Shown here in pieces: positions 36,701 to 60,700 of a DNA stretch of 64,000 bases. A program made the translations under genes and the position numbers. Under the pieces are notes generated by a model that saw nothing but the letters and a program-made list of their open reading frames with translations, did no database searches and was not told the DNA's origin. Source of the DNA: Podarcis vaucheri (Eukaryota); the NCBI GenBank assembly GCA_965113315.1, contig OZ220366.1; one strand, written 5' to 3'. The first letter of the stretch is position 1. Each line of letters starts with the position of its first letter.

Positions 36701-39700
36701 GAACACTTTCAGCAGACATTCGGCAGACAATCCTCACTTTTGACTTTCAGGCATCTCTTGAAGACCTTTTTTGTGCTAACAGGCCTAGGTAGTGGTTTAG
36801 CTTTTTCTTGAGTAGCCCATCATTTTAAAAATTGTTTTGTATTGTTTAAATTTTTTAAAATGTTGCTGAACCACCGCCCTGATATTTTATGGGAGGGTGA
36901 TATATAAATACTTTTATAAGTAAACAAAATGCCTACCCAGTTTCAGGAATTGAGCTTTTGAAAAAAATCCTAAAACACCTACAAAAACTTTATCCATATG
37001 AAATATTAAGAGATAAGGTTTGGCTAAAATTAGGAGACATCAGGAGTGGAGCTTTCGATGTTTGTTAAATGCTCCCTATTTTTTCTTCTATGATTTGAGC
37101 TCTGAAATGTGTGGCATTGCTTAACTCCTTTCCCTCTCTCTCTCTTTCTCTGTCTTCCCCCTTTTTAAAAAAAGAAAAGGACAAAAGAAAAGTTAGTGCA
37201 CGTTCTTACGCTTTGTGGTCAAGAAGTCGGCCTGAGCAAAAACCCTTCGGTAAGTCTCATATTTCTCCTTCTAGGGCTTATTCATAAACAGTTCAAAGGT
37301 ACAGCTCTAAATTTTATCTTCAGTTTGCTGGCATGATGTGACCCTTCCATAATGAATGCTGTTTCTCAGCCAAACGCAAGCAATAGATGTGCCTGTTAAA
37401 ACATTGTTGTTGGTTTAGGCAAGCCTATCCATACATGTAGATGCTGCTGTGTTTTAATCTCTTTTACTGTTAAGCTTTAATTATTTTTACATATTTTAAT
37501 TGTTTTTAACTGCTCTTTACTGACCACTATAATACTTCTTGCTAGCCAGTAGAGGTTTTACCAGAATCAAGTGGTATATAAATTTTGTTAAGTAACTAAA
37601 ATAAAATAATGTGTCTACCCACCAACCTACCCACTCCCCTTATCAAGCAATTATCTCTTGATGGCTTTGTTAAGATATGGCTTGCTGGTTAACTCATTTC
37701 AGAATTACTTAACTGTTCATTTAGGCAGTGTGACTATCTGCCTCTGACCGTTAACTTCCTGAACATTTTAGAAATTTAAGAATTCAAAGTCCATTCTGGC
37801 TTATACATACGGAAACAAAATAGGAGATAAAAGGATAGGGTAGAAATGAAACCGTGGTTGTTGGAATTCCTTTTCGGCTAAACATATGGGTCTCTGATAT
37901 GAGTCAGGTCTTCCATAGGTGACAAGAAATGGCTAGTAGTACATCTGTATCATCTGCTTAACATTTCTCAGTCTGCCCGCTCCCCCACCCCAAGTTCAAA
38001 AAGGTACATGCTGCATTTATTTGTTCATTTGGGGGGGGGAATGCCCTTACCCTCCACTTTTTGTTTTTGCCATTTCTTCTGCTAAAACTGATGCCAATCA
38101 GTAACTGTAGAAAATCAGCTGTAAGAGGCAGTTGGAAAAACAGCTGCTGCAGACAGACTTCTCTCTCTCTCCCACTTTCTCCCCGACCCCCCTACCCTCT
38201 CTTGCATCTAAGAGTGTATAGACACAGTCCACAAATAAACTTCCCCCATTGATGGAAAAGCACAGTTCGCGCCATGGTTGTGGAATGATGAAGTTCAAAC
38301 ACTTTTGTAAATAATAACAGCTGAAATGTAACACATTCTAATTCATCTGCATGCTTTCCCTTGTAACAACTGAGAAGCAAAAGGGCTGGCTTACCCCTTT
38401 TCTGTGCCCTTCCCGCAGTTGCATTCTGTTCCCATAAATGCATATAAATACTAAGGAAGCATCAATCTGCACCCATTAGGAGGTAGCTTGGACGTGTTCC
38501 TGCAGCTCATAGTTGCGTCTTAGTATGAGTTTAATCTGAAGGCACCTGTCCAACATAAATAATAAAAAGGAGCCTTCTAAAAATACCCACTGAAGGAATT
38601 AGGTGTGTACAGCTTTCTGAAAAGCCCATTAGACTAACAAAAGAGCGTCGTAGAGGAAGAGTTTGTTTTGTTTTTAATAGAAAAATCCCTCTTGACTTTT
38701 AGGTGATTTTTTCTTCATGTGGAGATTTGGATCTGATTGAGCACCAGACGAGCCTGGTGGCTTCCGAGGACGGAGCCCGCGAGCAAGAGAACATGGACGA
38801 TTCAAACAGCGAGCAGCAGTTCAGAGTCTTTAGGGATTTCGATTTCCTCGATGTGGAGCTGGAGGACGGGGAGGTATGGTACATTCTCTCTCAACAAACT
38901 TTGCTCTTACTGCAGATTAAGCCACTTTTTAGCACTTCCCCAACAGTAAATAATGTCCTCTTTATATTCTAGCAAAGACTTAGCTGAGCAACGATAAGTG
39001 TTTATAGAGTGTTAGTGCGATAGCCTAACTTTCGACAGGTTACTATCCCCTTCCTTAAACATACACCTTTTTTTCTCTTTATATGCTTCATTTTTTAAAA
39101 AACAAAAACAAACCCTCAATACACACTTTAATGCATGCTACAGAAGACTAGGGCTGAACATTTTAGTGATTTGTAGTGATACTAAGGTTTCCGTGCATTA
39201 AAATTTTAAAGATTCAGTACAGCCAAATGTCTGACATGCCCAATCATTAACAGGATGCATGCTTTGAATTTAATGAACAAACTGCACAAGCATTATAATC
39301 AGATGCTTTCATCAGTGCTCTCCCAAAACCTAAGCATAGGCCCGTGCATGTGTGTATGTGCATATGTGATGTTTATGCAGCACAAACGCGATGAAATCCC
39401 CAGCACTTAAAAGCCCCTGTGCCTTTTTTGCTCCACTCTATGGTGTTAGCAATTCTCATCAGCTCTCGTAGGAGAAAAACAGAAGCCCGAGGGCCTGCAA
39501 TCAGGTCTTGGCAGGTAAAAGCCTGTCAGTTTGTCTTTGACCGGAGTTGCTCCGAGGGCATATTATCCAGCTTACATCATATACTTGAAGGGTATTGGAA
39601 CGCCTTGCTTTTGCTTCATTTTGTTTCTTTTTTTTGGTAAGGCGTTTTACTGGTAATGCAGATCTGCTCCCTCTGGGAATAATTATATCTGTTTGACTGG

Positions 39701-57700: not shown

Positions 57701-60700
57701 ATGTTCTTTAAAACAAAATTATATAAACTACAATCTTGTATCCAGTTTTGTGAGAGTAAGCCCCATCGAGCTCAATGGAACATACTCCTGTATAGGCATG
57801 TATAGAATTGCACTGTTAGTGATCTATTACTTTGTCCTGGAATGGCTTAAGCCTTTTACATTCTTTGCCATTGAACATGGCTGGTTGAAACAAATCAGTA
57901 TTCCTGTGGAGACATTCAACCCACCCCATATTCCTGGCTTAAAACTGAACATTTCCCTACTTTTTCCTATGCCAAATGGCAATAGGTTTACATTCTTATG
58001 GTAATCTGAAGGGAAAATAAATTCAGTAGTTAATAATTGTATTATTCAGATAATATACTATATTCAGATAGTATCCCAGGGTATGAAAAATGTTGAGATG
58101 TATGCCCAAAATGCAAACATGCTTTGGCAAACAGCTGCCAGTGCAATTCTACAGTTGTTAATAGCTTGTCTCATCTCTTTGTTTGACTTCATATTTACTA
58201 GCATGGTGCTGGACTGTATCAGCTGCATGGCATCTGACACTATAAACCTCCATGTGCAACTGCTAGCGCAACCAACTTCCTGTGCAAATAACCTTACACG
58301 CTTTTATAATCAGCCGCCACAAAATAATTAAGACTGCAGTTATTTTGTGTTCATGCCCATTTCAATGGAACTCTGCATATTAAAAATGTGCATTCTTACT
58401 CCATGGGGGCAGCTTGTAACTCTAAATCCTCGTCAGCAACGAGATTGGATACAGAGCCAGTCTATCGCTGAATTATAATGGATGCCTCAGGTGCAAAGAA
58501 TTCTATAGGTGAATTTTAAGAGCACTGAACTGTTTCATTTCTAAGGTGTAATAACTTATTTTTAGAGTAATCCAGACTGGCTTTCAGAAAAAGTTATGCT
58601 CAAACTTAGATAATTACAGTGACTGCATTAGAACTGTGATTATTCAAAATTTTGTTTAAACAGCTGTTGCCGTGCATGTTGTGCAGTTGATACATTCTGA
58701 ATCACTTAGCAAGTAAAGAGAAGTGCTAATACTGCTGGCAGACTAGGAAAGAAGCCTGTGCTTTTCCAGTTGCATGCATTACACTGACACTATACTTTCT
58801 TTCCTTTCCTTTTTCCTGTGCCATGCTTGCTGTGTAGCAAATGGAATCTCTTGCAGTAAGTTAAAAGTTTTCATATTCTTTGTCCATTAAAATATGGACT
58901 AATGCACTCTCCTATTTCCCTGTTTTAACTCTTAGCACGTTTCCCCCTTTTTCTTTTTGTTCTTATTAATTCCATTTATTATTACAAGAAATGTTTGTAC
59001 TATGTTTTATTTCAGTTTCCTGGGCAGTTCGAATATAGTTTACCGTATTTATAAATTCTCGCTTTGTCATATGCAATTTGAAATTGTTATTTAAATTATA
59101 TTTGGACAATAATCAAAGCCCTCACTTGCTTAACGTGTGAAGGAAGAGAACAGAAGTAATGGCTCTACTAAAACAAGTAATTTCTGTACTGCCTTTCTCC
59201 AAAATGAGAGAGTTTTTCATTCTAGGCTAAACTGAGAATTTCATTATGTAATACAGAATAAAGGAATCTAATCAATTTTAGAGTATGATACCCCTGGAAT
59301 ATGATAAATCCATCCTCCCCACATGTACAACTGAGGGAATCCCTTTTCTCATCTCAGGGATTCCTCAGTTTAGTGGAGCCAATTTCTCTCCTCCTTCCTT
59401 GTCCCCCATCAGCCTTTACCTGCGAGCTCATACACTGCAGTGAACCAGCAATTACCTGGTGTTAAAGGACTATACATGACTCCTATATGAAGCTCCAACT
59501 TGCCTTTTCCTTCCTAAGGCCAGATGCACATGCACCAGTTACAAATTCGATACATGGATATGAGATCCAAATATGAGGATTTCTACTGCTTTCAAGTGAC
59601 CACACAGAATGGATTGTGTCCACCTCCCCTTTCTCTCTGCATAACAAGGCACTGTCATGGCACAGATCTATTGTGGTTCAACACTATGGTCATAAGCACC
59701 CATTCACGGAAGTCGTATATTTTTAAGGTTTTCAATTTAGCCAACCATTGTGTGTCTAAACTAAGTTACAAATGCAGTTTGAAAGAAATTGCAATTTCAC
59801 TTTTGAAGAAGTGGGAAACTCCTGCATCAACCCAATAAAGCACATTTATTTTTATTTCCTTGACTAATACAACAAACTTTAATGAGCCAAGTCCATAACA
59901 TTTCTTTTATGAAAAAATGTAGATTGTATAAATGCAGGCAGGCATTCTAATTAAGCAACTACCAGCTAAGACCTCAAAAGCGCAGTGTTTATATAATGGT
60001 ATTTAAACAAAAGTTGTGTTTGGATGTTACAGTAGACGATTATTGATTGCAATGGCAGCAGGCCACAGTGAGCTTCAGGCTTCTACACTCCCCTCCAGTA
60101 TGGCTATGAGGAGATAAAAACCTCTTACTTTCAGTTTTGATTAACCTGTTTAGCATTACATCTGCATTGTAAACTTTATAACCATAGAAGCCAGCTTTAT
60201 AATTCATGGTTTAAAGTTGGCTTAAAATTGGCTTGTTTCAAATGAATCATACTTAAGATAACTGCAGTCTATCATCTTCAAGTGTAACAGTAAGTTATAT
60301 TTAACTTAAAAAACAACCCAGAACCAAAAGCCATGCCAGAGGGAGACCAAGGACATGAACTGAAACTTCACTGTTTGCTCCCATAACAAGAAACCATGGT
60401 TTATTGTACAATTGAATACAGTTATTGTGATCATTTGGAACAAGCACTTGGTGCCACCATCAGATTAAAACGGTGATGCACATTATAATGAGGTAAAAAA
60501 TGCCACTGAAGTTCACTTTGGTGATGTAGAGATGGCGCATGCTTCCCATATTCTCCATGTATTCCCTATTTACAGCAGTATTTGGTCTTATTTCAGCCTT
60601 GTTTTGTAATCCCTGATTCGCAGTTTATTGCTTATGGAAAAATAATGTCCAACCTGTTGCTTCTTAATAACTTACCCCTTTTACAATTTTATTTCTTTAG

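Follow-up and report, generated by a model that had tools for sequence, protein, structure and literature searches.

Two conserved microexons amid probable splice-like background in the FRY gene of the lizard Podarcis vaucheri

Two microexons in FRY and their setting

Two genuine and ancient microexons, one of 9 nt (ELQ) and one of 18 nt (QMESLA), are very probably present in the FRY gene of Podarcis vaucheri, where they are likely turned on in neurons via SRRM3/4, and four further elements (the FAIIS, TGSNGHV, and GQGK units and a second donor 36 nt beyond exon w32, here +36) are likely background. All lie within a window of 64,000 nt of contig OZ220366.1 (assembly GCA_965113315.1; Table 1). 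An earlier note on this DNA had proposed that the six elements could form one combinatorial system, citing their occurrence in phase 0 introns and a TGC close to each unit acceptor. As a description this is accurate: the +36 donor and all five units are present, the latter on the plus strand, each preceded by AG and followed by GT, and a TGC lies no more than 22 nt from the AG at each of the five unit acceptors. Introns w25-w26 (7177 nt) and w32-w33 (6147 nt) are the longest in FRY among the 30 of 34 junctions resolved, and both, together with w27-w28 (2389 nt), are of phase 0.

Table 1. Features of the FRY region, in window coordinates
Feature	Position	Strand	Evidence or reading
FRY constitutive exon w25	38703..38873	+	Identical to Zootoca FRY across 57 aa (100%); junction mapped; spliced in RNA
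Dispersed short repeat with pyrimidine-AG|GTAAAT site	43465..43540	+	Of 171 candidates, 40 were scored and gave 39 matches elsewhere in the genome
ELQ microexon, 9 nt	43923..43931	+	Real, conserved, SRRM3/4 type; splice score, RNA contig, protein records, FRYL copy
FAIIS unit, 42 nt, [14 protein letters not shown]	45649..45690	+	Likely chance
FRY constitutive exon w26	46051..46251	+	Zootoca FRY match; junction mapped; spliced in RNA
FRY exon w27, 162 nt	46990..47151	+	Zootoca FRY match, RNA; skipped in certain other species' models
TGSNGHV unit, 21 nt	48049..48069	+	Likely cryptic; good donor, weak acceptor
FRY constitutive exon w28	49541..49707	+	Zootoca FRY match; junction mapped; spliced in RNA
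FRY constitutive exon w32	54470..54553	+	Zootoca FRY match; junction mapped
In-frame extension of w32 to second donor (+36)	54554..54589	+	Likely unused; [14 protein letters not shown] at 54590
GQGK unit, 12 nt	56913..56924	+	Best remaining candidate; striking acceptor, mediocre donor
QMESLA microexon, 18 nt	58838..58855	+	Real, conserved, SRRM3/4 type; mouse base identity, protein records, FRYL copy
FRY constitutive exon w33	60701..60811	+	Zootoca FRY match; junction mapped

Conservation and probable regulation of ELQ and QMESLA

Both microexons have the size and frame of SRRM3/4 neural microexons, being short (9 and 18 nt), phase 0-0, frame-preserving, and bounded by canonical AG/GT. The ELQ acceptor carries a TGC at -10 and its donor matches U1 at 8 of 9 positions; at QMESLA the TGC triplets stand at -19, -14, and -10, and the donor reads GTAAGT but has only 6/9 U1 matches overall. 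All 18 bases of QMESLA are identical to those of the mouse exon. Among FRY/FRYL proteins spanning the w25|w26 junction, 76 of 394 carry the shorter insert (ELQ in 75, VLQ in 1), and a QMESLA-type hexapeptide is found in 136 of the 360 that span w32|w33, including the Zootoca FRY model. Each is present in some FRY records and absent from others across a range that runs from sharks, which have both, to mammals, and the FRYL gene of the same genome holds counterparts in the matching introns (ELQ and HLEILA, respectively). These protein records and FRYL copies, together with published orthologue events, bear out the earlier note where it takes this pair for conserved SRRM3/4-type microexons.

Splicing of ELQ is documented by contigs of a single run from a related species (X1), in which the w25-ELQ-w26 contig has a depth of 8, compared with 28.3 for the direct w25-w26 joint. 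As the contigs of X1 and X5 are spliced, both runs were taken to be RNA. That the window and the related species differ little around ELQ (2/487 versus a background of 2.4%) was not counted as support, since three other intronic pieces diverge as little.

Regulation has been described for the orthologues. The mouse Fry 9-nt (MmuEX0019666) and 18-nt (MmuEX0019668) events are eMIC-dependent (PMC8797185), the human 18-nt exon (HsaEX0026454) has a neural dPSI of 87.8 (PMC12626424), and the zebrafish frya 18-nt exon shows a neural PSI of 82.6 and a dPSI_eMIC of -73.2 (PMC12626424); events are recorded for both frya (DreEX0033581) and fryb (DreEX0033604) (PMC8797185, PMC12626424, PMC12626420), and a chick FRY microexon is also the subject of study (PMC12871342). 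ELQ was matched to the 9-nt event of mouse through size, position, and the protein of a mouse cDNA (P0436) rather than through printed sequence. The mouse, human, and zebrafish exons resemble those of the lizard in gene, size, UGC near the acceptor, and the existence of included and skipped forms; their neural pattern and SRRM3/4 dependence are published, whereas in the lizard these properties are taken over from the orthologues. The paralogous FRYL exons (HsaEX0026467, 9 nt, and HsaEX0026468, 18 nt), which occupy matching introns (PMC7935315, PMC9303857), rise by 90.7 and 87.2 PSI with SRRM4 (PMC7935315). The peptide of the FRYL 18-nt exon has diverged from that of FRY, reading QMEILA in birds and HLEILA in the P. 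vaucheri genome.

By analogy with these orthologues, SRRM3/4 would bind the UGC lying downstream of the pyrimidine tract and ahead of the AG, and would raise inclusion of ELQ and QMESLA in nerve cells. ELQ is predicted to make the disordered acidic stretch that links two conserved motifs three residues longer, and QMESLA to add roughly one turn at the beginning of a long helix within the C-terminal helical domain. Searches for a solved structure returned none by sequence and none by fold at E<=0.001. Such changes may tune how the FRY C terminus binds its partners in neurons, each exon probably having a mild effect. A zebrafish screen that included frya and fryl-1 deletion lines describes minimal phenotypes for most mutants (PMC12626420).

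Probable chance occurrence of microexon-like sequence

Shared phase 0 and TGC were ruled out as evidence for a microexon system, as both are background in FRY. From w19 onward, 14 of 16 introns are of phase 0; a TGC lies near the acceptor at 543 of 1598 intronic YAGs (34%) and at 9 of 30 constitutive acceptors. Within the three introns, 496 AG..GT units are in frame, free of stops, and 6-51 nt long; 189 of them have a TGC. Running against the background reading, units with TGC at GQGK-level scores number 8 in these introns, three of the candidates included, more than the 1.4 predicted from controls. ELQ is the top unit of the 496 by splice score. Trained on 45 sites, this score places the true QMESLA only 13th, so that rank alone is weak evidence.

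The four elements other than ELQ and QMESLA are likely background splice-like sequence. None occurs in 500 FRY/FRYL proteins, among which the named lacertid records number only 2, both from Zootoca, so that a lizard-only exon could be missed; counted over junction-spanning proteins, FAIIS is found in 0 of 394, TGSNGHV (+7 aa) in 0 of 204, and GQGK and +36 each in 0 of 360, and by this measure none is conserved among vertebrates. Nor did any of the four have a counterpart among the published FRY microexon records consulted. Short blastn searches of the candidate units against FRYL stretches gave chance matches only, including one of 18/20 to GQGK (E 0.3) that falls in a non-matching intron and has no GT. 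FAIIS ranks 59th of 496, and its donor, with a U1 match of 3.5/9, lies below all 30 constitutive donors.

Alternative readings of the candidates

A scheme in which the +36 donor and all five units are in use, in combinations that vary by tissue, is highly improbable, even though every part is in frame, stop-free, and accompanied by TGC. The ELQ and QMESLA components of that scheme hold; the five- or six-part system is not supported, as the other four parts have no homologue in the 500 proteins and their splice sites are weak or ordinary, the FAIIS donor being weaker than any real one, and the shared phase and TGC are the background just described. FAIIS and TGSNGHV are not among the listed RNA joints, which come from four runs of unrecorded tissue at low depth over w25-w28 (2-9 raw reads per joint, 16 further joints unlisted); w27 and w28 are joined directly in three of the four runs (X23, X1, X5). 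Annotated models include all four ELQ/QMESLA combinations (175, 86, 42, and 27), most of them gene-model predictions; two mouse cDNA proteins carry both inserts or neither. A reduced version with ELQ and QMESLA as two switches has some support, all of it by analogy with the paralogue: in the zebrafish data of PMC12626424, the 9-nt exon of fryl differs in tissue pattern from the 18-nt exon, and the published FRYL patterns likewise diverge, the 9-nt exon being ascribed to retina or endocrine pancreas and the 18-nt exon appearing broader in zebrafish.

It is rather unlikely that TGSNGHV or the +36 donor is a cryptic site used now and then at a low level, under neither selection nor tissue control. 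TGSNGHV (rank 24/496) has a donor, GTG|GTGAGT, with a 6.5/9 U1 match and passes a strict composite filter that 2 units pass in the three introns and 4 in 78 kb of controls, and +36 is the sole in-frame alternative donor among 30 junctions (score 6.0 versus 8.1), both donors being of ordinary strength on a rough score. Against this reading stand the lack of a TGSNGHV joint among those listed and of any protein record for either element.

GQGK might instead be a third, young, lizard-restricted microexon responsive to SRRM3/4, placed ahead of QMESLA in an insert-tolerant loop, a proposal that is unlikely on balance. Its acceptor follows an AG-free zone of 175 nt, the longest of 1397 sense intronic YAGs in FRY, with 70% pyrimidine and a TGC 5 nt upstream of the exon, and the insertion point falls in a low-confidence loop of the predicted structure. 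Within this intron, five frog models and one rodent model carry in-frame inserts of 17-55 aa; the frog inserts are mutually unrelated, except for two from poison frogs, and gave no meaningful tblastn match to lizard intron w32-w33. On the other side, the unit ranks 31st of 496, and its donor (AAA|GTTAGT), with a score of 3.0, is weaker than any of the 30 constitutive donors (minimum 3.6) and at odds with the strong donors described for neural microexons. One of 1389 antisense control sites nearly equals the zone (173 nt), and the 360 spanning proteins that lack GQGK include 23 of 33 squamate records spanning the site. A genome search with GQGK matched only GQGK itself.

A repeat-derived donor upstream of ELQ

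The dispersed repeat upstream of ELQ contains a site, 43516|43517, with a donor score of 10.4 and an acceptor-like score of 9.1; a single contig (X1, depth 5) shows its donor spliced to ELQ, and no joint from w25 to 43517 is among those listed. In its intronic pyrimidine-AG|GT site, its donor joined to a downstream exon, and the acceptor that would be recreated, the arrangement resembles recursive splicing or intrasplicing, from which it differs in being known from one contig, as the first-step joint only, and in lying inside a dispersed repeat. Inclusion of ELQ could then be stepwise, the repeat donor joining ELQ-w26 before w25 is re-spliced to the recreated acceptor. The broader idea that the FRY microexon introns are nurseries of new splicing, with GQGK a newborn lizard neural microexon paralleling the frog and rodent inserts and 43516 serving such stepwise inclusion, is quite unlikely. 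An internal promoter before w26, to which a rise in X1 depth from 42 to 140 might point, was set aside because contigs cannot show level and dips in depth are no finding.

Significance

ELQ and QMESLA in lizard FRY are already known as catalogued vertebrate neural microexons and represent an ordinary case, filling one gap in the tree for the vertebrate neural microexon programme. A full-text literature search for furry, NDR kinase, and microexon together found no paper. The modelled placement of QMESLA at the start of the long C-terminal helix would offer a testable handle on its effect in FRY. Should GQGK or the repeat-derived site prove true, they would be small examples of new microexons or stepwise splicing arising beside old ones.

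Candidate units and the chance background

FRY occupies the plus strand of the window with 35 exons, most of them 95-100% identical to Zootoca vivipara FRY in alignments staying inside the exon, and 30 of the 34 exon junctions resolve exactly. The longest introns among the resolved junctions are w25-w26 (7177 nt) and w32-w33 (6147 nt); both, like w27-w28, are phase 0. The earlier note had read five in-frame AG..GT units in these introns, with a second donor extending w32 by 36 nt, as a possible combinatorial microexon system. All were found in the window as described, and the interpretation holds only partly: mixing of six parts is not supported, and the real parts, ELQ and QMESLA, are already known.

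Coordinates of features in the window and of the FRYL microexon loci of the same genome
Feature	Position	Remark
w25	38703-38873
Repeat copies	41745-42115; 53890-54230	abundant, interspersed; putatively SINE-like
Repeat-derived donor	43516-43517
ELQ unit	43923-43931
FAIIS unit (42 nt)	45649-45690
w26 acceptor	46028-46050	score 3.7
w26-w27	46051-47151
w27	46990-47151	162 nt
TGSNGHV unit	48049-48069
w28 acceptor	49518-49540	score 5.2
+36 donor, extension of w32	54554-54589
GQGK unit	56913-56924
QMESLA unit	58838-58855
Low-divergence intronic pieces	43194-43449; 47122-47611; 49813-50099	0-0.4% from related species
FRYL loci L003 and L001	G000:C28, ~61607221 and ~61589560	minus strand

Introns of phase 0 predominate in this stretch of FRY (14 of the 16 from w19 onward), and TGC lies within the last 22 nt of 543 of 1598 intronic YAGs and of 9 of the 30 acceptors of constitutive exons. 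In the three introns, 496 AG..GT units of 6-51 nt are in frame and free of stops; 189 of these have TGC. By a rough splice score, trained on 45 FRY and FRYL junctions, ELQ ranks 1, QMESLA 13, TGSNGHV 24, GQGK 31 and FAIIS 59 among the 496; as QMESLA ranks only 13, the score alone cannot tell true units from false. Counting against a reading of the units as chance background, eight TGC units reach GQGK-level scores in these introns, three of them candidates, where controls predict 1.4. The FAIIS donor matches 3.5 of 9 positions of the U1 consensus, under all 30 real donors. The GQGK acceptor is unusual in being AG-free for 175 nt, the top of 1397 sense intronic YAGs; in the antisense control, 1 of 1389 reaches 173 nt. 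Constitutive acceptors average 9.2, and those of w26 and w28 score near the bottom of the gene's range.

RNA evidence

Four runs of a related species (~2.4% intronic divergence; tissue unstated) were aligned over 38600-50300. A contig of run X1 joins w25 to w26, with the ELQ letters in between, at depth 8, and the direct w25-w26 joint has depth 28.3. The direct w27-w28 joint occurs in X23 (9 reads), X1 and X5. Neither a joint nor an insert for FAIIS or TGSNGHV is among the joints listed for the four runs, an absence that is weak because raw depth is low, the listing omits 16 joints and contigs lose rare forms.

In another X1 contig (depth 5), ELQ and then w26 follow directly on position 43516. 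A 614-nt intronic contig terminates exactly at this position, and the intron upstream of it has coverage. This donor sits inside a dispersed repeat, right after a pyrimidine tract and AG. Extension of w25 to it meets a stop after 32 codons, so that the form would be a non-coding by-product or splicing intermediate; the site is possibly an intermediate or a dead-end cryptic event. After the join, the AG would have an acceptor score of 9.1, close to the constitutive mean. The site and GQGK are the remaining leads of this locus.

X1 contig depth rises from ~42 on w25 to ~140 on w26-w27, and several short protein records begin at Met in w26; an internal start may exist, although contigs cannot show one. 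Skipping of w27 is absent among the joints listed for the four runs, and bat, caecilian, bichir and reedfish models leave this exon out. The repeat copy in intron w25-w26 draws thousands of off-target reads. Three intronic pieces diverge far less from the related species than the 2.4% background.

Conservation and published counterparts

Protein searches and cluster look-ups, three of each, yielded 500 FRY/FRYL proteins, a non-random set including genomic ORFs and partial records. Among the 394 that span w25|w26, 318 lack an insert, 75 have ELQ and one VLQ. At w32|w33 (360 proteins), 222 lack one, 131 have a QMESLA-type hexapeptide alone, one has VG and six have longer, lineage-specific inserts, followed by the hexapeptide in five. 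Seven extra residues at w27|w28 occur in 0 of 204 spanning FRY records, and the motifs of FAIIS, TGSNGHV, GQGK and the +36 peptide in 0 of 500 proteins; a lizard-only exon could escape this survey, as only two named records are lacertid. Both microexons are present in sharks and rays, and the genome's own FRYL, the paralog, has a 9-nt ELQ exon and an 18-nt HLEILA exon in matching introns, which suggests that both predate the FRY/FRYL duplication. HLEILA differs from the QMEILA of bird records.

The longer w32|w33 inserts (in frame, 17-55 aa) belong to five frog models and one rodent model (P0411, P0415, P0417, P0419, P0421, P0486), mostly precede QMESLA and mostly show no kinship with each other; intron w32-w33 may be a repeated source of new exons.

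Lizard QMESLA is base-identical to the 18-nt exon of mouse Fry. This mouse exon (MmuEX0019668) and the 9-nt MmuEX0019666 are labelled eMIC-dependent (PMC8797185), and human FRY HsaEX0026454 and the 18-nt exons of zebrafish frya and fryb are neural, that of frya with neural PSI 82.6 and dPSI_eMIC -73.2 (PMC12626424). SRRM4 raises the human FRYL 9-nt and 18-nt exons by 90.7 and 87.2 PSI (PMC7935315), the former being retina-enriched (PMC9303857); FRYL is named among SRRM4 targets (PMC13387927), and a FRY microexon goes up from HH15 to HH27 in chick brain (PMC12871342). Neural microexons are described as having strong donors, a UGC close to the AG, frequent though not essential, and a downstream intron mostly spliced first (10.1101/2024.09.17.613571, PMC10250204). 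Literature searches returned no paper tying furry, NDR kinase and microexon together, none on a microexon of zebrafish frya, and, for microexons, lizards and srrm4, three titles, none of them about FRY. A zebrafish screen of 45 mutants, which reports mostly minimal phenotypes, includes frya and fryl-1 lines in its data files and leaves fry unnamed in its main text (PMC12626420).

Proposed mechanism and predicted structure

By analogy with the orthologs, for which the effect is shown, SRRM3/4 in lizard nerve cells would increase the inclusion of both ELQ and QMESLA, acting via the UGC beside their acceptors. The acidic linker and the C-terminal helix would each become slightly longer, putatively tuning partner binding by FRY, which is described as a scaffold for NDR1/2 that has leucine zippers at its C-terminus (PMC7987989). 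All four ELQ/QMESLA combinations occur in annotated models, mostly predictions. The tissue patterns of the zebrafish fryl pair differ between the two exons, which makes two semi-independent switches plausible.

AlphaFold2 models, built from vertebrate-only alignments, compared two C-terminal fragments from mouse, one carrying both inserts (mean pLDDT 59.7), the other neither (57.6). The first ~230 residues of both, including the ELQ site, are of low confidence, consistent with disorder. In the models QMESLA sits where a confident long helix begins; the predicted start of this helix is 6 residues ahead of LELC in the fragment lacking the insert and 10 in the one carrying it, a gain of about one turn. 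The loop preceding this helix is the place of the frog and rodent inserts.
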